Positions 11,153 through 53,928 are shown, numbered from the stretch's first letter. The stretch: 64,000 bases of DNA from Desulfobacteraceae bacterium (GCA_011042305.1 DQXI01000012.1:23984-87983); one strand, 5' to 3'. Notes: generated from the letters alone by a model not told the origin. A program made the numbers and translations.

Positions 11153-11782
11153 ATGATCGTCAAATCGGCCACCTTTGTCAAAAGCGCCGTCACCCCGGCA
11201 CATTATCCCCCAGCCGACCGCCCCGAGGTCGCTTTTGCCGGCCGCAGCAACGTGGGCAAGTCGTCCCTGATCAACCGCCTGGTCAACCGTCGGCGACTCG
11301 TCAAGACGAGTTCGACCCCCGGCCGGACCCAGCTGATCAACTTCTTTTTGGTCAACCAAAACCTGTATTTCGTCGATCTGCCCGGTTACGGCTATGCCAA
11401 GGTGCCAGCGAAGGTCCAGCGCACGTGGGCGCCGATGGTCGAAGCCTACCTCGGCGCCCGCCCCACCCTGCAGGCCGTGGTGGTAATCATCGACATCCGC
11501 CGACTTCCGGGCCGCGAGGAGCATGATCTGCTTGCCCGGCTCCGGCAGCAGCATGTGGCGACCCTGCCGGTGCTCTCCAAGGCGGACAAGCTCCCCCGGA
11601 TGCACCAGCTGACCCGTCAGCGCACGATTGCCGAATCGCTGGGCCTTGCCCCTGCCGATTTGATTCTCTTTTCGGCCAAGTCCGGCCAGGGCCGCCGCGA
11701 ACTGTGGCAGGCCATCGAAAGGCGTATCGGCCTTGACGATGCGCCTTCCAGCGATCATCCCCGCCGCTCCGGCGGTGAGTGA
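11153..11782 (+). CDS. engB: Ribosome biogenesis GTPase YsxC/EngB
   Basis: G1 GRSNVGKSSLIN, G3 DLPGYG, G4 SKADK. Confidence 0.9.
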   Translation: MIVKSATFVKSAVTPAHYPPADRPEVAFAGRSNVGKSSLINRLVNRRRLVKTSSTPGRTQLINFFLVNQNLYFVDLPGYGYAKVPAKVQRTWAPMVEAYLGARPTLQAVVVIIDIRRLPGREEHDLLARLRQQHVATLPVLSKADKLPRMHQLTRQRTIAESLGLAPADLILFSAKSGQGRRELWQAIERRIGLDDAPSSDHPRRSGGE

Positions 11783-11794
11783 AAGGTTCTTGCC

Positions 11795-12700
11795 ATGTCT
11801 GCCCCATTGCCTTCCGCCTTCCGCTGCGGCTACGTCGCCATCCTGGGAGCGCCCAACGCCGGCAAGTCCACCCTGCTCAACCGTTTGCTGGGCATGAAGA
11901 TCGCCATCACTTCCAAGCGGCCCCAAACCACCCGGACCCGGATCCTCGGGGTGGTGCAACGGCCCGGCGCCCAGATGATCCTCCTGGACACCCCGGGCAT
12001 CCACCAGGCCAGGGGGCCCCTCAACACCAGGATCGTGGCGGCCGCCCTCACCGCCATGGAGGATGTCGACCTGCTGCTTTGGCTGGTGGACGCCGAGCGG
12101 CCGGATCCGGAGGCGGAGGGCTTTTTGCTCGAACGGCTGCCCTCCGCCGGCCCGCCGGTGCTGCTGGCCATCAACAAGATCGACCGGGTGGCCAAGGCGC
12201 AGGTCCTGCCGCTGATCGACGCCTGGCGCCGGCGGCACCCCTTTGCCGCCATCGTGCCCATCAGCGCTCGTTACGGAACCCAGCTCGAGGCCCTGGAAGA
12301 GGAAATGACCCGGCTGCTGCCGGAGGGCCCGGCCCTGTTTCCCGAGGACCAGGTCACCGACCAGCCCGAACGGGTCATCGTCACCGAGATGATCCGCGAA
12401 AAGGTCTTTCGCCTCACCGGCGCGGAGATCCCCTACAGCACCGCCGTCACCGTCGAGCAGTTCAAGGCCCGGCCGGATCGCGCCCTGATCGACATCCACG
12501 CCACCATCCACCTGGAACGGGATTCGCAAAAGGCCATCGTCATCGGCAAGGGCGGGGCCAAGCTGCGCCAGATCGGCGAGGCGGCCCGCATGGACATCCA
12601 ACGGCTTCTGGGGGCAAAGGTTTTTTTGAAGCTCTTCGTGCGCGTCCAGAAAAACTGGACCAGGGATGCCAAGGCAATGGAGCGCTTCGGCTATCCATGA
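11795..12700 (+). CDS. era: GTPase Era
   Basis: G1 GAPNAGKST, DTPG, NKID, and a C-terminal KH domain (VIGKGGAKLRQIG). Confidence 0.95.
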   Translation: MSAPLPSAFRCGYVAILGAPNAGKSTLLNRLLGMKIAITSKRPQTTRTRILGVVQRPGAQMILLDTPGIHQARGPLNTRIVAAALTAMEDVDLLLWLVDAERPDPEAEGFLLERLPSAGPPVLLAINKIDRVAKAQVLPLIDAWRRRHPFAAIVPISARYGTQLEALEEEMTRLLPEGPALFPEDQVTDQPERVIVTEMIREKVFRLTGAEIPYSTAVTVEQFKARPDRALIDIHATIHLERDSQKAIVIGKGGAKLRQIGEAARMDIQRLLGAKVFLKLFVRVQKNWTRDAKAMERFGYP

Positions 12701-13530
12701 TTCTTTCCTACCATCCGATGTTCGTCGGCGACCAAAACCGCCTGTGCGCCGGACGTCGTCCAGACGCCGCCGACCGGGCCGCCATGCGCCGGGCAGCGGC
12801 GGTGATCCTTCCCCAGGGGACCTACCGATCCCTGTATGAAATGGCCCGTGAAAGTTGTCCAAACGTCTTTCCCGGTCAGGACCGCCGCTTTTCCCATCCC
12901 GGCAAGAGCGGCCAGGCACGGCTGTTCGCCGAGGCGGCGGTGCCCCACCCGAAGACGCGGATCTATGCCGGCAGCAACGATCTGGACGGCGAACGGCCGC
13001 CGGGCCCGTTTCCCTTCGTGCTCAAGCTCGACTGGGGCGGCGAAGGGCGAAACGTCTTCTTGATCGACTCGCCGGCGGCCTGGACTTCGGCGCTCGCGCG
13101 GCTGCGCGCCTACGAAGCCACTGGGCAGGGGGGCTTCTTGGTCCAGGAGCTGATCCCCGCGGCCGGCCGGGCCCTGCGCGTGGCGGTGATCGGCACCCGG
13201 GCCGTGGCCTATTGGCGGGTGCGGCCGGATGGCGGCTTTGCCGCCAACCTGGCCCACGGGGCGACCCTCGATCACCACAGCGACCCGCAACTGATCAAAG
13301 CCGGCGTCGAGGCAGCGCTGCAGTTTTGCCGGCACCAGCACATCGACCTGGCCGGGCTGGACTTGTTGTTCGACGCCCGCAAGGCCGCTGCCGAGCCGCT
13401 CTTTTTGGAAATCAACTGGGTCTTCGGCCGCCGCGGCCTGGGCGGATCCGAAGGGTTTTACCGCCTGCTGATCCCCGAGATTCACCGCTGGCTGGCCCGG
13501 CGCCACCTCGCCGTGCGCCATGCGGGTTGA
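12697..13530 (+). CDS. ATP-grasp domain protein (RimK-like ligase, unknown substrate)
   Basis: 277-aa C-terminal part of track ORF 11779..13530. The part upstream of 12697 is a shadow of era. ATP-grasp-like strands: FVLKLDWGGEGRNVFLI, GFLVQELIP, AGLDLLF, LEINWVFG. ATGA overlap with the era stop. Confidence 0.7.
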   Translation: MILSYHPMFVGDQNRLCAGRRPDAADRAAMRRAAAVILPQGTYRSLYEMARESCPNVFPGQDRRFSHPGKSGQARLFAEAAVPHPKTRIYAGSNDLDGERPPGPFPFVLKLDWGGEGRNVFLIDSPAAWTSALARLRAYEATGQGGFLVQELIPAAGRALRVAVIGTRAVAYWRVRPDGGFAANLAHGATLDHHSDPQLIKAGVEAALQFCRHQHIDLAGLDLLFDARKAAAEPLFLEINWVFGRRGLGGSEGFYRLLIPEIHRWLARRHLAVRHAG

Positions 13531-13603
13531 GGGCCAGATCGGTTGCTTCGCCGCCGCCGATGGCGTAAGAGAGGGGCAATTGGGTTCAACCGCGGTGCAG
13601 ACC

Positions 13604-16600
13604 ATGAAACGCGAAGACGATTGCATCCTGGGAATCGATTTCGGCACCACGGCCATGGGGGTCGTGGCGGTCTCTGCCTCGGGCGCGCTCCGCGCCAGCG
13701 CCTACCACCAGCACCAGGGACAGCTGGCGGACATACTGGAAAGCGCATTGGCCGCATTCGATCTGCCGGCAATGGGACCGGTGGCGGCGGTGGCCTCGAG
13801 CCCGCGGGCGTTGCGCGCCGATGGCCGCATCGATCCCCAGGTGGCGCTCATCACCGCCGTGCGCCAGCGCCACCCCGACGCCCGGGCCATCCTGTCCGTG
13901 GGCGGCCAGAATTTTTGCCTGATCCGCCTGGACGCCAACGGCGGATACCTCGGCAGCCACAGCGCCACCTCCTGCGCCGCCGGTACCGGGGCTTTTCTCG
14001 ACCAGCAGGCCCGACGTCTCGAGCTGTCCTCGGCGGCCGAGCTGAGCCGCGTGGCCCTGTCCAACCGATCCGATCGGCCCCGCATCGCCTCACGCTGCGC
14101 CGTTTTCGCCAAGACCGACCTGATCCATGCCCAGCAGCAGGGTCACGACCTGGCCGCCATCTGCGACGGACTGTGCCACGGGTTGGCGCGCAAGATCGTC
14201 GATACCCTCTTTGCCGACGACCTGCCGGAGGGGGACATCGTGTTTTGCGGCGGCGTGGCGCGCAACACCGCGGTGCGCCGACACATCGAAGCGCTGCTGG
14301 GCCGGCGTCTGATCGTCTCCCCCGAATCCCACCTCTACGGGGCGCTGGGCGCCGCCCTGGCCTTGAAGTCCGCCGGCCTCAAAGCCCACGCAACCTCTCG
14401 CCCCCGCCGCCCTGGCGACCTGCTGGAGCCCACCCCGCAGGGCCGGGGCTTCACTTATCCCCCCCTGGCGTTGCAGCTTTCGCCGTATCCGACCTTCGAC
14501 AGCCTCGAGCGCTATCTCGACCCGGGGGAAAATGGAGCCGACATCGAGGTGGACCACTACGCGGCCCTTGCCCCGCACCAGCCAGCCTACCTGGGCCTGG
14601 ACATCGGCTCCACCAGCACCAAGGCCGCCCTCGTGGCGCCGGACGGCACGGTCCTGGCCGGTTTCTACACCCGCACCGCCGGCCATCCCCTGGCAGCGGT
14701 GCAACGTCTTTTCAGATCTGTTCGCCGCTTCGCCGAACGCCACGACGCCCAGCTGCAATTCTTGGGCGCCGTCACCACCGGTTCCGGCCGTCAGTTCATC
14801 GGCGCCATCGTCGGGGCCGACCTGGTGCTGGATGAAATCACGGCCCACGCCCGGGCAGCCTGTCAGCTTGACCCAGAGGTGGACACCATCATCGAGATAG
14901 GCGGCCAGGACGCCAAATTTACCCGGCTGCAAAACGGCCGCGTCGTCTCGGCGGTGATGAACACCGTTTGCGCCGCCGGTACCGGCAGCTTCATCGAGGA
15001 GCAGGCCGCCAAGCTCGGCTGCCCCCTGGACGAGGTGGCCCAGCGCGCCTTGGGTCGCCGGGCCCCCCTGGTTTCGGATCGCTGCACCGTGTTCATGGAG
15101 CGGGACCTGAACCACTACCTAGCCGAGGGATGGCCGGTGGACGAGATTCTGGCGGCAGTGCTGCACGCCGTGCGGGAAAACTACCTGCTCAAGGTGGGCG
15201 CCGAAAACCGCATCGGCCGCAGGATTTGCTTCCAGGGGGCCACGGCCAAGAACCGGGCCCTGGTGGCAGCCTTCGAGCAGCGTCTCCGGAAGCCGATCGC
15301 CGTATCGCCGTTTTGTCATCTCACCGGCGCCATCGGCGGTGCCCTGACCCTCATGGACGCCCGACGGGAAACCAACGCCGAACCCGCCACGCGCTTCCGC
15401 GGCCTGTCGCTCTGGCGCCATTTTATCCCGGTGCGCACCGAAGTCTGCGACCTTTGCGCCAACCACTGCAAGCTGAGCGTGGCCGAAGTCGACGGAGAGA
15501 CGGTGGCCTGCGGCTTTCTCTGCGGCCGCGACTACGACACCCGGCGCCGGGTGCACGTGGCCCCACACACCTTCGATCCCCTCGCCGTACGGCGCCGGGT
15601 CATGTCCCGTCGGCCGCCGGCCGCCCCGGCCCGCCGTCGGCCCATCATCGGGCTGCCGGCGGCCGGCCACCTAGTGGAGGATTTGGGCCTGTGGCAGGTC
15701 TTTTTTCAGCAGCTCGGCTTTGAAACCGTCTCCAGTGAAAACTGCCCGGCCCCCCTGGCAACGGGAAAGCGGATCGCCGGGGCCGAGTTCTGCGCCCCCA
15801 TCACCGCCTTGCATGGCCACGCGGCCTGGCTGGCGGAACGCTGCGACCACATCTTTTTGCCCGTCTACCTGGAAGAGCGCACCGGCCGGCGGACTTTGCG
15901 CCGTCACTACTGCTACTATACCCAGTTCGCACCCGTGCTGGTGGGAAACGCCCTGCCCGACCTCGCCAAGCGGATTTGCGCCCCCCTGGTGCGCTACCTC
16001 TACAGCGACTTTCACACCCAGCGGGAGATTTATCGGGCGCTGAAAACGTTTGGCGGCCCGGCGCCAGGATTTATCGAGGTGGCCGGCGCCCTGGAAAAGG
16101 CCCAGCAATGGCAGCGGGAGCGGCGGCGGGAGCTCGTGAGCCGGTGGCAGCACCGCCAGCGGCCCGGGGACACTTTGCAAGTCCTGCTGCTCGGCCGCCC
16201 CTACACCCTGCTGTCGCCGTCGCTGAATCGGGGGATTCCCGAACGGCTGCGCCGCCTGGGCATCGACTGTTGCCTGCCGGAAATGCTGGAACCGACCCCG
16301 GCGCAGAGAGCCGTCGTGGCGCCGTTGCTCGAGACGCTCCACTGGCGCCACGCGGCCGAGATCATGACCGCCGCGGCGGTGGCCGCCGTCCGCCCGGGCC
16401 TCTACCCGGTGCTGGTCACCTCCTTCAAGTGCTCGCCGGACAGTTTCACCGCCGAATATTTCAGGCGCCTGATGCACGACTACGACAAGCCCTACCTGAT
16501 CCTGGAGCTGGACGAGCACGATTCTCCGGTGGGCTACGAAACCCGCATCGAGGCGGCGGTGCGCGCCTTTCGCAACCACTGGCAGGCGGACTCGCCCCCT

Positions 16601-17848
16601 GCCCCGGTGACGCCTCGGCGGGTCAACCCGGCGCCCGGCGCCCGGCGCCGCGGCAAGACCATCGTGCTGCCCAACTGGGACCGGCTCTCGGGTCGACTGC
16701 TCACCGGCGTACTCCAGCACGAGGGCCAGCCGGCGGTGCTGATCGAAGAGACCGCCACCACCATCGCCAAAAGCCTGCGTTCCAACACCGGCCAGTGCAT
16801 TCCCATCAACGCCATCGTCGAGGGCTTCGCCGAGTGCCTCCAACAGCACCGGATCGATCCCCGGAACGCCGTCCTGTGGGTCGGGCGGGCCAACATCGCC
16901 TGCAACGTGGCGCTCTATCCCCACCACATGCGGTGGCTGCTGGCGGAGCGGGGCGGCGGGTTGGAACGGGCCGGCGTCTACACCGGCGACGTCTTCTTTA
17001 CCGACATTTCCACGCGGGCAGCCATCAACGCCGTGCTGGCCTACATGTTCGGCGGCCTGTTGAGACGGGTCGCCTGCCGCCTGCGCCCCTACGAGAGGAT
17101 CCCCGGCGAAACCGACCAGGTGCTCGATTGGGCCGTGGCACGGCTTCATGCCGCTTTTGCCACCGGGGAAAGCAAGGATGCGGCCCTGGATGAGGTCATC
17201 CGACGCTTTGAAAAGATTCGCATCCGGCCCGAACAGCGGCCCAAGGTGGCCATCTTCGGCGATCTTTACAGCCGGGATAACCGGGCGATGAACCAGGACC
17301 TGGTGCGCTTCATCGAGGCCCACGGCGGTGAAGTGGTCTCCACGCCGTACAACGAGTACGCCCGCATGATCGCTTTTCCCTATCTGCGCAAATGGTTCAC
17401 CGAGGGCCGCTATCTCACCGCGCTCACCAACCGCACCCTCATGGCGGTGGTCGGCCTCCTGGAACGCCATTACTACCGCTACTTCCAGCGCATTTTAGGC
17501 GAACCGATGGCGGTCTTCGACGACGATCTCAACGCCATTCTCGCCCCCTACGGGGTCCGCCAGGAGCATGCCGGCGAGTCTCTGGACAACCTGATCAAGG
17601 TGCACTACCTGAAAAAGCACCACCCGGACCTCTCTCTGTTCGTCCAGGCCAGCCCGGCCTTGTGCTGCCCCTCGCTGGTCACCGAGGCCATGGCCCGTCG
17701 CATCGAGGCGGTCACCGGCGTTCCGGTGGTCAGCATCGTTTACGACGGCACCGGGGACGCAAAGAACGCCCCCATCATCGCCCACCTCCAGTACCCCCGC
17801 CGCGCCCCGGCACCGACGGAGGCCGGCCTTCGCGGCCGATCCGCTTGA
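13604..17848 (+). CDS. Giant fusion protein: two BcrAD/BadFG (HgdC-type) activase ATPase modules plus 2-hydroxyacyl-CoA-dehydratase-like/DUF2229-type C-terminal modules
   Basis: 1414 aa from ATG 13604. There are two actin-fold ATPase modules (ILGIDFGTT.. and YLGLDIGSTSTK..). Each keeps the HgdC-type Cys pair (SCAAGTG/SRCAVFA and VCAAGTG/DRCTVFM). A Cys-rich linker (CDLCANHC...CGFLC) follows. The C-terminal half resembles HgdB/BcrC (SFKCSPD, ILELDEH, SPALCCPS). Confidence 0.85.
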   Translation: MKREDDCILGIDFGTTAMGVVAVSASGALRASAYHQHQGQLADILESALAAFDLPAMGPVAAVASSPRALRADGRIDPQVALITAVRQRHPDARAILSVGGQNFCLIRLDANGGYLGSHSATSCAAGTGAFLDQQARRLELSSAAELSRVALSNRSDRPRIASRCAVFAKTDLIHAQQQGHDLAAICDGLCHGLARKIVDTLFADDLPEGDIVFCGGVARNTAVRRHIEALLGRRLIVSPESHLYGALGAALALKSAGLKAHATSRPRRPGDLLEPTPQGRGFTYPPLALQLSPYPTFDSLERYLDPGENGADIEVDHYAALAPHQPAYLGLDIGSTSTKAALVAPDGTVLAGFYTRTAGHPLAAVQRLFRSVRRFAERHDAQLQFLGAVTTGSGRQFIGAIVGADLVLDEITAHARAACQLDPEVDTIIEIGGQDAKFTRLQNGRVVSAVMNTVCAAGTGSFIEEQAAKLGCPLDEVAQRALGRRAPLVSDRCTVFMERDLNHYLAEGWPVDEILAAVLHAVRENYLLKVGAENRIGRRICFQGATAKNRALVAAFEQRLRKPIAVSPFCHLTGAIGGALTLMDARRETNAEPATRFRGLSLWRHFIPVRTEVCDLCANHCKLSVAEVDGETVACGFLCGRDYDTRRRVHVAPHTFDPLAVRRRVMSRRPPAAPARRRPIIGLPAAGHLVEDLGLWQVFFQQLGFETVSSENCPAPLATGKRIAGAEFCAPITALHGHAAWLAERCDHIFLPVYLEERTGRRTLRRHYCYYTQFAPVLVGNALPDLAKRICAPLVRYLYSDFHTQREIYRALKTFGGPAPGFIEVAGALEKAQQWQRERRRELVSRWQHRQRPGDTLQVLLLGRPYTLLSPSLNRGIPERLRRLGIDCCLPEMLEPTPAQRAVVAPLLETLHWRHAAEIMTAAAVAAVRPGLYPVLVTSFKCSPDSFTAEYFRRLMHDYDKPYLILELDEHDSPVGYETRIEAAVRAFRNHWQADSPPAPVTPRRVNPAPGARRRGKTIVLPNWDRLSGRLLTGVLQHEGQPAVLIEETATTIAKSLRSNTGQCIPINAIVEGFAECLQQHRIDPRNAVLWVGRANIACNVALYPHHMRWLLAERGGGLERAGVYTGDVFFTDISTRAAINAVLAYMFGGLLRRVACRLRPYERIPGETDQVLDWAVARLHAAFATGESKDAALDEVIRRFEKIRIRPEQRPKVAIFGDLYSRDNRAMNQDLVRFIEAHGGEVVSTPYNEYARMIAFPYLRKWFTEGRYLTALTNRTLMAVVGLLERHYYRYFQRILGEPMAVFDDDLNAILAPYGVRQEHAGESLDNLIKVHYLKKHHPDLSLFVQASPALCCPSLVTEAMARRIEAVTGVPVVSIVYDGTGDAKNAPIIAHLQYPRRAPAPTEAGLRGRSA

Positions 17849-17891
17849 AACCCCCTGGCGCGCCCTCCCGCCGAGATCATCGCTTGGCCTA

Positions 17892-18224
17892 GTGACGGGA
17901 ATTGGATATAGTCAGCCTGTGAAAGATTTTTCCTTCCACATCGAAGCCGAGGACATCCGCCGCGAGCGGGCCAAGGCCCGTGACTTGCGCCACAGCCAAT
18001 GGTGGAAACGCCGGCTGGCCAAGGGGGTGTGCCATTGGTGCGGACGGCGCTTCGCCGCCGCCGAGTTGACCATGGACCACATCGTGCCCATCGCCCGGGG
18101 CGGCCTGAGCACCAAGGGCAACGTGGTGACCTGCTGCAAGGAATGCAACAACCGGAAAAAGCAGCTTCTCCCCATGGAGTGGGAGGCTTACCTGGAAGGC
18201 TGGCGCGTCGGGCAGAAGCCGTGA
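17892..18224 (+). CDS. Small HNH endonuclease family protein
   Basis: HNH core CHWCGRR...MDHIVPIARGG...N..TCCKECNNRK. GTG start, with uncertain start position. Confidence 0.8.
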   Translation: MTGIGYSQPVKDFSFHIEAEDIRRERAKARDLRHSQWWKRRLAKGVCHWCGRRFAAAELTMDHIVPIARGGLSTKGNVVTCCKECNNRKKQLLPMEWEAYLEGWRVGQKP

Positions 18225-18307: not shown

Positions 18308-18403
18308 GCGGCTAACGTTGCCAAAACTGTTTCTTCAACCTAGCGCCGTCGGCCTGGCCGGAAACCGCGGGCGAGACCATCGGCCCATCGAGGAGGATGA
18401 TTG

Positions 18404-19474
18404 ATGCGAAAGGGATGCTTGCTGCTGGGGATGATCTTTCTGGTATGGATGGTGGGAGCTGGCGGGGCTGGCGCCGCCGACGAGGCGCTCAAAGTGGGAT
18501 TCATCTACGTGTCGCCGGTGGGCGACGCCGGCTGGTCCTATGCCCACGAACAGGCCCGCCTGGCCGTCGAGGCTCTGGAGGGCGTGCGCACGGCCTTTGT
18601 GGAAGACGTCCGCGAGGGGCCGGACTCCGAGCGGGTGATGCGCAACATGGCGCGCAAGGGCTATGACCTGATCTTTGCCACCAGCTATGGTTACATGGAT
18701 TCCATGCTCAAGGTGGCCGGCGAGTTTCCCGATACGGTCTTCATGCACTGCTCGGGCTACAAGCTGGCCCCCAACATGGGCAATTATTTCGGTCGCATCT
18801 ACCAGGCCCGCTACCTGAGCGGCATGGCCGCCGGCGCCATGACCCGGGGCGGCCAGATCGGTTACGTGGCGGCTTTTCCCATTCCCGAGGTGATCCGGGG
18901 CATCAACGCTTTCACCATCGGCGTGCGCGCCGTCAATCCCAAAGCCACGGTGCGCGTGGTCTGGACCAAGACCTGGTACGATCCGGCCACCGAGAAAGAG
19001 GCCGCCAAGAGCCTGCTGGATGTCGGCTGCGACGTCATTGCCCAGCACCAGGACAGCCCGGGCCCCCAGGAAGCCGCCCAGGAACGCGGGGCTTACTCGG
19101 TGGGCTACAACACCGACATGTCGGCCTTCGCTCCCAGGGCCCACCTCACCGCCGCCGTCTGGAACTGGGCGCCCTTCTACCTGGAAGTGGTGGAAAGCGT
19201 GCGCAACGGCACCTGGAAAAGCACCGCCGCCTGGCCGGGGATGGAAAAGGGCATCGTGGGCCTGGCGCCTTTCGGCCCCATGGTGCCCGAGTCGGTCAAG
19301 ACCCGGATCGAGCAGGAAAAAGCGCGCCTCATCAACGGCGAGACTCGGGTTTTTGCCGGACCGATCAAGGACCAACAGGGGAACTTGAAAATCGCCGCCG
19401 GTGAAACGGCCTCGGACGAAGCCCTCCTTGGCATGACCTGGCTGGTCGAAGGGGTGGTGGGCACCACCGAGTAG
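18404..19474 (+). CDS. BMP-family (PnrA-like) ABC transporter substrate-binding lipoprotein
   Basis: Signal peptide followed by VGFIYVSPVGDAGWSY, typical of Bmp/PnrA nucleoside-binding proteins. AGGAGG lies 7 nt upstream of ATG 18404. Confidence 0.9.
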   Translation: MRKGCLLLGMIFLVWMVGAGGAGAADEALKVGFIYVSPVGDAGWSYAHEQARLAVEALEGVRTAFVEDVREGPDSERVMRNMARKGYDLIFATSYGYMDSMLKVAGEFPDTVFMHCSGYKLAPNMGNYFGRIYQARYLSGMAAGAMTRGGQIGYVAAFPIPEVIRGINAFTIGVRAVNPKATVRVVWTKTWYDPATEKEAAKSLLDVGCDVIAQHQDSPGPQEAAQERGAYSVGYNTDMSAFAPRAHLTAAVWNWAPFYLEVVESVRNGTWKSTAAWPGMEKGIVGLAPFGPMVPESVKTRIEQEKARLINGETRVFAGPIKDQQGNLKIAAGETASDEALLGMTWLVEGVVGTTE

Positions 19475-19558
19475 CGGCTTCCGCGGCGGCCCCCAGCGGC
19501 CGCCGCGAGGCTTTCCCTTGTCTTCCCGCCGTCTTGTCGGCGGCGGCGCGGCGATCAC

Positions 19559-20623
19559 GTGAACCCCATCAGTGTCCATAAAAGAACCGACCCCTTGACC
19601 TGGCCCGCAGCCTTGATCCTCGGGCTGGCCATCGTCCTGTCCCTGTCGGTCAGCGCCCTGTTGCTCCATTGGCAGGACAAACCGGCCCGCGACGCATTGG
19701 TCATCTTGTTCCAGGGGGCTTTCGGATCGTGGCATGCCCTGGAAGACTGCACCATCAAGGCCGTTCCCATCTTCCTGTGCAGCCTCGGCGTGGCCGTGGC
19801 CTTTCGGCTGCAGGTCTGGAATATTGGCGCCGAGGGGCAGTTCGCCATGGGGGCTATCGGCGCCACCTGGGTGGTCCTCCAGTTTCCCCAGTGGCCGGCT
19901 TTCCTGCTCCTGCCGGCCATGATGGCCGCCGCGGCCCTGGGCGGCGGGTTCTGCGGCCTGATTCCCGCCCTGCTCAAGGTCCGTCTCAGGGCCAACGAAA
20001 TCATCGTCTCGCTGATGCTCAACTACGTCTGCATCCTGTTCTTGGAATACCTGGTCTACGGTCCCTGGAAGGACCCGGTCAGCTTTGGTTTTCCCATGAC
20101 AATGGTCTTCCCCCCCGCCGCGATTGTGGGCGCCATCGGCTCCAGCCGCCTGAACTGGGGGTTGGTGCTGGCCCTGGCCTGCGCTGTCGGGTTCTGGATT
20201 TTTTTCCGTTTCAGCCGCCTGGGCTACGAGCTGAAGGTCTGCGGGGAGAGCCCCCGCGTCGCCGGCTACGCCCGCCTACCATACCACGGCCTGGTAATCG
20301 CGGTGATGGTGACCGGCGGCGCCCTGGCCGGCTGGGCCGGTTTTCTTGAGGTCTCCGCCACCCTCAACCGGCTTCAACCGAGCATCATGGTGGGCTACGG
20401 GTACACCGCCATCGTGGTCGCCTGGCTTGCCCGGCTCAGCCCGGCCAGTATCGCGGCCGCCAGCCTTCTGCTTGCCGGGCTGCGGGTCGGGGTGGAGAAC
20501 CTGCAGCTTGAAATGCAGGTGCCGGCGGCCTTCGGTGGCATCATGGAGGGCGTCCTCCTGCTGACGGTGCTGGCAGGCGGTTTTTTTGTCCGCTACCGTG
20601 TCCGCTGGCGGGGGTTCTCATGA
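19559..20623 (+). CDS. ABC transporter permease (nucleoside/simple-sugar type)
   Basis: 354-aa polytopic membrane ORF with a GTG start. It follows the BMP binding protein. Confidence 0.88.
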   Translation: MNPISVHKRTDPLTWPAALILGLAIVLSLSVSALLLHWQDKPARDALVILFQGAFGSWHALEDCTIKAVPIFLCSLGVAVAFRLQVWNIGAEGQFAMGAIGATWVVLQFPQWPAFLLLPAMMAAAALGGGFCGLIPALLKVRLRANEIIVSLMLNYVCILFLEYLVYGPWKDPVSFGFPMTMVFPPAAIVGAIGSSRLNWGLVLALACAVGFWIFFRFSRLGYELKVCGESPRVAGYARLPYHGLVIAVMVTGGALAGWAGFLEVSATLNRLQPSIMVGYGYTAIVVAWLARLSPASIAAASLLLAGLRVGVENLQLEMQVPAAFGGIMEGVLLLTVLAGGFFVRYRVRWRGFS

Positions 20624-53853: not shown

Positions 53854-53928
53854 GCGGGAATAACTCAGTGGTAGAGTGCGACCTTGCCAAGGTCGAAGTC
53901 GCGGGTTCAAATCCCGTTTCCCGCTCCA
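53854..53928 (+). tRNA. tRNA-Gly (anticodon GCC), CCA encoded
   Basis: GCGGGAATAACTCAGTGGTAGAGTGCGACCTTGCCAAGGTCGAAGTCGCGGGTTCAAATCCCGTTTCCCGCTCCA. This gives a cloverleaf with a 7-bp acceptor stem, anticodon loop CTTGCCAAG and T-loop GGTTCAAATCC. It is close to E. coli tRNA-Gly(GCC). Confidence 0.93.

Follow-up and report, generated by a model that had tools for sequence, protein, structure and literature searches.

The engB-era Locus and Its Fusion Gene

The DNA analyzed here, hereafter called the window, is a 64,000-nucleotide stretch of a Desulfobacteraceae bacterium (GCA_011042305.1, DQXI01000012.1:23984-87983) with a G+C content of about 65%. Its plus strand carries, in this order, hisG, an aminotransferase gene, engB/ysxC, era, an ATP-grasp ligase gene, a giant open reading frame (ORF) and a small HNH gene, followed by genes of a Bmp-type ABC transporter (Table 1). 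The giant gene is intact. It probably encodes a member of the PlsA/PlsR-Ger family, i.e., a radical reductase of the ether-lipid type that is driven by ATP, and is an accessory gene within the era string. Loci used for comparison are designated by L numbers (L001 and the like), L087 to L098 being the genomic contexts of relatives of the ATP-grasp protein.

Two start codons were considered for the giant ORF, ATG 13520 and ATG 13604. The second one corresponds to the residue where the homologs begin and is kept in L091 (85% nucleotide identity), while the first one is not. The 1414-aa version is therefore preferred, which agrees with the coordinates and length given in an earlier note on this DNA. 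The window contains a single copy of the fusion gene.

Table 1. Features of the engB-era region in the window.
Feature	Position (nt)	Strand	Evidence
engB/ysxC ribosome-biogenesis GTPase, first gene of the conserved string	11153..11782	+	TIGR03598 5.6e-63, above cut-off; same position in L087-L098
era GTPase	11795..12700	+	NF000908 7.9e-109, above cut-off
RimK-superfamily ATP-grasp ligase, 277 aa	12697..13530	+	Pfam RimK 1.3e-11
Fused activase-reductase, intact, 1414 aa, PlsA/PlsR-Ger architecture	13604..17848	+	Pfam/NCBIfam domains, alignments, Listeria match
Act1, first BcrAD/BadFG ATPase module, more divergent, residues 1-265	13604..14398	+	phmmer, Cys alignment
Act2, second, canonical BcrAD/BadFG ATPase module, residues 326-585	14579..15358	+	phmmer, Cys alignment
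Cys-rich linker CX2CX3C...X17C, presumed extra Fe-S site	15431..15538	+	Invariant Cys
Red1, DUF2229 module and weak HGD-D tail, residues 680-995	15641..16588	+	PF09989, PF06050
Red2, second catalytic module, putatively HAD/BCR/DCCP-like, residues 1011-1400	16634..17803	+	AF2 model and Foldseek
Candidate sigma-70-like promoter site TTGGCC-17-TATAGT	17884..17912	+	Consensus scan; hexamers conserved
Small HNH protein, 101 aa from conserved GTG	17919..18224	+	HNH_5 1.8e-13

Activase Modules

The earlier note had proposed that the giant protein contains two BcrAD/BadFG modules, each with the Cys pair that ligates a bridging cluster in HgdC. Hidden Markov model (HMM) scans did find two stretches matching PF01869 (BcrAD_BadFG; 2e-63, 214.9 bits for a cut-off of 31.5) and two matching TIGR00241 (1.1e-72, 244.6 bits for a cut-off of 125.4). 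With phmmer, the second module (residues 330-606) was aligned with HadI (4EHT, 4.9e-31) and HgdC (1HUX, 4.3e-28), and the first one (residues 84-259) with the same two proteins (3.7e-21 and 1.4e-19, respectively). Both expected Cys pairs are present, since C456/C494 of the second module and C124/C165 of the first one fall on Cys127/Cys166 of HgdC; these four residues do not vary among 45 aligned homologs. The second module reads IGGQDAKF, like HgdC, whereas the first one reads VGGQNF (residues 99-104, around 13898-13915), the family consensus being VGGEKF. This divergence of GGQNF/GGEKF from GGQD suggests that the pseudo-dimer is asymmetric throughout the subfamily, one of its nucleotide sites being degenerate.

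Linker and Reductase Half

The Cys-rich linker that had been announced downstream of the ATPase modules is also present: it reads CX2CX3C...C and its four Cys (C615, C618, C622 and C640) are invariant in the 45 homologs. The first three (CxxCxxxC) align with Cys of a Listeria homolog described below, in which a further Cys lies one column off C640. This linker is presumed to bind a cluster.

Downstream of the linker, DUF2229 (PF09989) gave a single match (residues 682-894, 2.8e-34, 119-121 bits for a cut-off of 29.4). The PF06050 (HGD-D) tail is weak in the window protein (0.068, 13.2 bits) and was matched in 28 of 28 homologs, with a best value of 3.7e-5. Invariant Cys of the 45 homologs are found both in Red1 (C730, C770 and C943) and in Red2 (C1065, C1100, C1158, C1354 and C1355). 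The HMM search detected nothing beyond the weak HGD-D tail in the last 520 residues or so, and no Pfam or NCBIfam model matched Red2 (approximately the last 400 aa). Likewise, phmmer returned no match between the C-terminal half and the PDB sequences, and an internal duplication was undetectable by profile-profile comparison of Red1 and Red2, which gave no significant similarity.

An AlphaFold2 (AF2) model of residues 595-1414, built with 28 sequences, had a mean predicted local distance difference test (pLDDT) score of 83 and a predicted template modeling (TM) score (pTM) of 0.83. The top 13 Foldseek matches of this model in the PDB are all catalytic subunits of ATP-dependent radical enzymes (E 2e-5 to 4e-3, target-normalized TM-score of about 0.36-0.46): the double-cubane cluster protein DCCP (7YYL, 6ENO, 7YZM), BzdNO (8S02, 8S2R), HadBC (3O3M, 3O3N) and MbdON (9GAI, 9G87). 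When residues 1011-1414 were modeled alone (pLDDT 77), the first matches were 6ENO, 3O3N_B, 7YYL and 3O3M_B (E 5e-4 to 1.6e-3; TM 0.40-0.46 for 6ENO and 3O3N_B). With either model, only subunits of these enzymes stood above background. Red2 is thus recognizable as a putative catalytic module by its predicted fold alone, and the similarity is distant. The earlier note had announced two HgdB/BcrC-like modules of the DUF2229 type; both are found at the fold level, but the second one is not a DUF2229 by its sequence.

Taken together, the HMM scans, the alignments with HgdC and HadI and the Foldseek matches support the proposed membership in the ATP-dependent low-potential electron-transfer enzymes. 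Domain content, Cys alignment and fold also support a predicted intramolecular pseudo-dimeric activase fused to catalytic partners of the benzoyl-CoA reductase (BCR), 2-hydroxyacyl-CoA dehydratase (HAD) or DCCP type. Among solved proteins, those closest in structure and sequence to the catalytic half and to the ATPase modules are DCCP with its reductase (DCCP:DCCP-R; 7YYL/6ENO) and HadBC with HadI (3O3M, 4EHT), which share with the window protein the ATP-driven injection of electrons from a Cys-bridged [4Fe-4S] cluster that its sequence predicts. In these systems, activator and catalytic part are distinct proteins, the former a homodimer and the latter made of separate subunits, whereas all four parts are carried by one chain in the window protein, which has in addition the Cys-rich linker. 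Furthermore, the likeness of the catalytic modules to the DCCP and Had subunits is limited to the fold (TM of about 0.4, 9-14% identity), and the substrates of DCCP/Had-type enzymes are CoA thioesters or small molecules.

A Known Class of Ether-Lipid Enzymes

The substrate of this fusion class had been considered to be unknown. This view is out of date, as the same architecture is that of PlsA/PlsR, the anaerobic plasmalogen synthase (2021), and of Ger, the glycerol ester reductase (2022), two enzymes that form ether lipids by turning the acyl ester at sn-1 of phospholipids into an ether. The enzyme class of the fusion is therefore already known and its claimed novelty fails. Fusions combining two PF01869 domains with PF09989 and PF06050 correspond to PlsA/PlsR and Ger, whose lipid products were identified by heterologous expression (PMC13159169, PMC8788747, PMC12838417, PMC11150832). 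In Clostridium perfringens, plsA and plsR convert diacyl phospholipids into plasmalogens, and a single gene is present in many bacteria (PMC9702350, PMC12838417). The plsA gene of Enterococcus faecalis has 4248 bp, and the predicted parts of its product, with [4Fe-4S] clusters, were named Act1, Act2, Red1 and Red2 (PMC12838417), names that we use here; published AlphaFold3 models of PlsA include Act1, Act2 and a [4Fe-4S] cluster. Ger (“modified PlsA”) of Thermotoga maritima and of the sulfate reducer Desulfatibacillum alkenivorans produced 1-O-alkyl glycerol ethers in Escherichia coli under anoxic conditions only (PMC13159169), and a later study reported that the D. alkenivorans enzyme produces diethers too. 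Ger was defined by a pair of PF01869 domains with a single PF09989 domain and small hits of PF06050/PF09989; the combination of two PF01869 with PF09989 has been published for PlsA of E. faecalis as well as for Ger of both T. maritima and D. alkenivorans (PMC13159169; bioRxiv supplement). Chemically, the ester is proposed to be reduced in two one-electron steps before being protonated and dehydrated. According to the field, Ger and PlsA are at present indistinguishable by sequence (PMC13274423). The level of similarity used in the literature for validated enzymes is a DIAMOND E-value <= 1e-50 with a coverage >= 30%.

The window protein has this published architecture: its single chain of some 1400 aa contains two PF01869 and PF09989, as well as a weak PF06050. 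Its fused counterpart in Firmicutes is PlsA/PlsR (EF1327/Q835P9 in E. faecalis; split into Q8XL48 and Q8XL47 in C. perfringens). In both, the parts come in the same order, namely two BcrAD/BadFG modules carrying the cluster Cys pairs, then a CxxCxxxC linker, DUF2229 and a second reductase part, and the lengths are similar (1414 aa for the window protein and 1415-1475 aa for the PlsA type). They differ in that the window protein is only 25% identical to this type and belongs to a separate subfamily, that its host is an obligately anaerobic Desulfobacterales-type organism and that it is not preceded by a TetR regulator gene, unlike pls of facultative anaerobes. It also resembles Ger (SHJ90043; Tmari_0479/AGL49404 in T. 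maritima) in having two PF01869 and PF09989 within a single chain of approximately 150-160 kDa, as well as in its anaerobic host. However, the small C-terminal Pfam hits differ, with BBD and one weak H in the window protein compared to the published BBDHDDH and BBDHDHDH. The likeness to Ger (SHJ90043 and AGL49404) is one of published architecture and host lineage.

Homologs and Subfamily Placement

A search with the full protein retrieved over 7800 database clusters at E <= 1e-20. The top-scoring matches are 50-62% identical, have about 1400-1450 aa and come mostly from Desulfobacterales and Desulfobulbales. A genome scan retrieved 80 full-length homologs (43-63% identity) in Desulfobacterota, Nitrospirota and Spirochaetota, and a HMMER search with the C-terminal half retrieved 2348 clusters (50% identity) at E <= 1e-3, 364 of them at E <= 1e-30. 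Compared to the window protein, full-length representatives fall into two tiers, of 40-55% and 29-38% identity, the former including a homolog from a Desulfatibacillaceae metagenome-assembled genome (47%). A further search seeded with this homolog retrieved no D. alkenivorans protein. In public annotation, homologs are still named “acyl-CoA dehydratase activase”; as a consequence, readers who do not know the literature of 2021-2022 keep rediscovering these proteins as unknowns.

Active pls orthologs have been reported in Listeria (PMC9702350). WP_014600632.1 from Listeria monocytogenes has 1475 aa, two BcrAD domains and DUF2229, and BLASTP aligned it collinearly with residues 10-1245 of the window protein (25% identity, E 2e-86). 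We infer that it is the pls ortholog of the literature from the fact that it is the sole match in a 2.9-Mb Listeria record. The window protein is thus a clear homolog of the Firmicutes pls type, but of another subfamily. Its orthology to Ger is likely because of the host lineage and of the many Ger homologs that the authors of Ger reported in deltaproteobacteria (PMC13159169). As a side observation, the Listeria record (NZ_CP030101.1) was encountered within the PLSDB plasmid collection, where NZ_LR134399.1, NZ_CP154629.1 and NZ_CP084075.1 are, like it, chromosomes or chromosome fragments recorded as plasmids; this is a caveat for plasmid statistics.

Homologs of the ATP-grasp, HNH, era and engB genes were searched by tblastn (E <= 1e-5) within about 8 kb of the fusion homolog in 84 loci (43-63% identity), with the outcome given below. 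Other genes recur beside the homologs. MlaFEDC phospholipid-transport genes are found divergently upstream in seven to nine of 80 loci (for example, L020 5538-7094, L072 4615-5262 and L083 4923-5381), a modest lipid-related association. An AMP-binding gene of the acyl-CoA synthetase type is present in six loci and ComEC in 11. In about 20 of 80 loci, a gene encoding a 158-aa protein lies directly upstream on the same strand (for example, L005 5481-5957, L015 707-1183 and L016 7315-7788). This protein has no Pfam match, its N-terminus looks by eye like a ribbon-helix-helix, and it is absent from the window.

Proposed Function

The most plausible function of the window protein is that of an oxygen-sensitive ATP-driven radical reductase. 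Its two N-terminal ATPase modules would form an intramolecular HgdC-like pseudo-dimer with a [4Fe-4S] cluster bridged by C124/C165 and C456/C494. ATP hydrolysis would push a low-potential electron, probably via the Fe-S site of the linker, into the two C-terminal HAD/BCR-like modules. In these modules, a membrane glycerophospholipid would have its sn-1 acyl ester reduced and dehydrated to an ether. The product could be a saturated alkyl ether (Ger type, as in sulfate reducers) or a vinyl ether (plasmalogen), between which the sequence cannot discriminate.

Several points weigh against this proposal. The first ATPase module, devoid of GGQD, may be a non-hydrolyzing partner, and the geometry of the pseudo-dimer is a prediction. 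WP_014600632.1 is only 25% identical to the window protein; more generally, proteins are 40-63% identical within the subfamily, whereas the Listeria protein shares about 23-29% identity with each representative compared. Within this subfamily, no protein could be traced to experimental work. The validated Ger and PlsA were likened to the window protein by published architecture and, for Ger, by host lineage. Finally, Ger2 of D. alkenivorans and proteins of the same architecture from T. geofontis and Kuenenia gave no ether lipids in E. coli, which was ascribed to inclusion bodies.

Alternatively, the subfamily found in Desulfobacterota, Nitrospirota and Spirochaetota would share only its chassis with PlsA/Ger and act on a non-lipid substrate, as an uncharacterized ATP-dependent radical reductase or dehydratase. 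The low identity to the Listeria pls-type protein and the inactivity of several homologs in E. coli would fit such a function, as would the depth of the family (2348 clusters at 50% identity, in at least three tiers) and the absence of adjoining lipid genes in most homologous loci. However, the domain order and all the Cys motifs are collinear with those of the pls-type protein over about 1240 residues, and the published failures of expression have the explanation given above. Furthermore, one validated Ger comes from a Desulfobacterota species, many deltaproteobacterial homologs of Ger have been reported (PMC13159169), and Mla and AMP-binding genes recur beside the homologs. A non-lipid substrate is therefore considered unlikely.

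If the ether-lipid function is confirmed, this organism is able to turn ester lipids into ether lipids. This would bear on the sources of the non-isoprenoid alkyl glycerol ethers of anoxic sediments and on the debate about the “lipid divide”.

The era String and the Fusion-Gene Site in Relatives

The ATP-grasp protein has relatives up to 84% identical, compared to at most 63% for the fusion protein. Its gene directly follows era in five of the six other lineages examined. In L087-89 (83-84% nucleotide identity), the gene order is PBP-hisI-hisG-aminotransferase-engB-era-ATP-grasp-HNH, and window positions 13511-17919 are missing. L098 (Desulfobacteraceae Eth-SRB1, ATP-grasp protein 50% identical) harbors engB-era-ATP-grasp-HNH with overlapping genes. 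In L095, the HNH gene lies 660 nt after the ATP-grasp gene; a radical SAM gene separates the two in L090, and L096/97 show engB-era-ATP-grasp only. In Desulfobacterales-type genomes, engB-era-ATP-grasp is thus the conserved unit, and an HNH gene usually comes next. The gap between the ATP-grasp and HNH genes varies among genomes and holds the big gene in the window genome.

L091-94, four independent assemblies (85% identity), are collinear with the window up to 13704. They retain only window positions 13604-13704, 15714-15843 and 17582-17850, i.e., a fusion-gene remnant of about 500 nt (8905-9401 in L091) that arose through two deletions, 2009 nt and 1738 nt long, next to an intact ATP-grasp gene. 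These contigs end less than about 300 nt after the remnant, and the HNH gene was not found there.

The earlier note had considered the ATP-grasp ligase, the fusion enzyme and the HNH protein appended to engB-era to be an unusual combination; on this reading, they would form one functional module. In the window, the genes are all on the same strand and tightly spaced, with an ATGA overlap of the era stop and ATP-grasp start codons at 12697-12700, a 73-nt gap before the fusion gene and a 43-70-nt gap after it, and no terminator-like site was found between them. A homolog of the ATP-grasp, HNH, era or engB gene was found near a fusion homolog in 0 of the 84 loci searched. Conversely, the ATP-grasp and HNH genes occur together after era without the fusion gene (L087-89 and L098), with a radical SAM gene instead (L090) or with the 660-nt spacer (L095), and the ATP-grasp gene stays intact where the fusion gene is reduced to a remnant (L091-94). 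The HNH gene also has its own conserved promoter-like site (see below). A single module is thus extremely improbable. The analysis of neighborhood conservation shows that these neighbors are not conserved with the fusion gene, which makes their adjacency fortuitous. Since the ATP-grasp gene is conserved with era and HNH in loci devoid of the fusion gene, it belongs to the era string and not to the fusion. The fusion gene is an accessory insert in this string, with a fortuitous placement and without functional tie to its neighbors.

The losses observed in L087-89 and L091-94 raise the question of whether the fusion gene of the window is itself a decaying relic, intact by chance and no longer functional. 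It has been lost from the closest relatives, completely in some and partially in others, and the window protein has five private changes at otherwise invariant columns (E102Q, N197K, T441R, T448V and P1393A). However, the 4245-nt ORF is uninterrupted, all the invariant Cys and nearly all the other invariant residues are kept, and two other full-length homologs have the same number of private changes. Decay is consequently very unlikely, and the fusion gene is taken as functional but dispensable in this lineage, as judged from its sequence. The comparison with relatives brings a new element, namely that this gene is dispensable and being lost in close lineages, which fits an accessory function in membrane tuning.

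No integrase, repeat or tRNA was found at the junctions of the fusion gene, the only tRNA of the window being at 53854; a defense island or mobile element was therefore dropped as an explanation. In a PADLOC scan, the fusion and ATP-grasp proteins had no defense-system match and the small protein had generic HNH matches only.

ATP-Grasp Ligase and HNH Gene

The ATP-grasp ligase scored below all the NCBIfam cut-offs (61 bits for 143.4 with TIGR00768, 33.7 for 331 with NF007764), including those of LysX and MptN. Its best solved relative is RimK (5ZCT/4IWX, E of about 1e-7). It was thus assigned to the RimK superfamily and rejected as RimK proper, its scores being under the equivalog and subfamily cut-offs. 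The era-linked ATP-grasp proteins are 50-84% identical among relatives, usually with an HNH protein of 101-118 aa encoded just downstream. To our knowledge, no function has been described for an era-linked ATP-grasp ligase; its linkage with Era suggests a ribosome-related target. One could go further and propose, on the one hand, that the clade of the fusion protein is made of single-chain ATP-driven radical reductases with a substrate still to be discovered and, separately, that engB-era-RimK-like ligase-HNH is an undescribed module modifying a component of the ribosome or of its assembly. This double proposal seems rather doubtful to us.

The HNH homologs are 69-81% identical to the window protein and, in L087-89, L090, L095 and L098, their genes adjoin the ATP-grasp gene or lie close to it. 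Their comparison indicates that the HNH gene lies where the earlier note had placed it, but that its start is likelier GTG 17919, conserved in relatives and located 70 nt after the fusion gene (101 aa), than 17892, which had given a 110-aa protein 44 nt downstream. The 5′ extension of this 110-aa version contains the promoter-like site detected by a consensus scan. Homology extends over the roughly 75 nt that precede the HNH gene, even though this segment comes after the ATP-grasp stop codon in L087 and after the fusion stop codon in the window. The TTGGCC and TATAGT hexamers are kept in L087 and L091, whereas their flanks have diverged; with their 17-nt spacing, they make up a candidate sigma-70-like promoter. 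The -10 hexamer ends 6 nt before the HNH start in both the window and L087, and the HNH mRNA might be leaderless.

Beyond the HNH gene, the minus strand has a 466-aa ORF (18335-19735) without family match, antisense to the Bmp lipoprotein gene (18401-19474, plus strand); it is most likely a spurious ORF of high-GC DNA.

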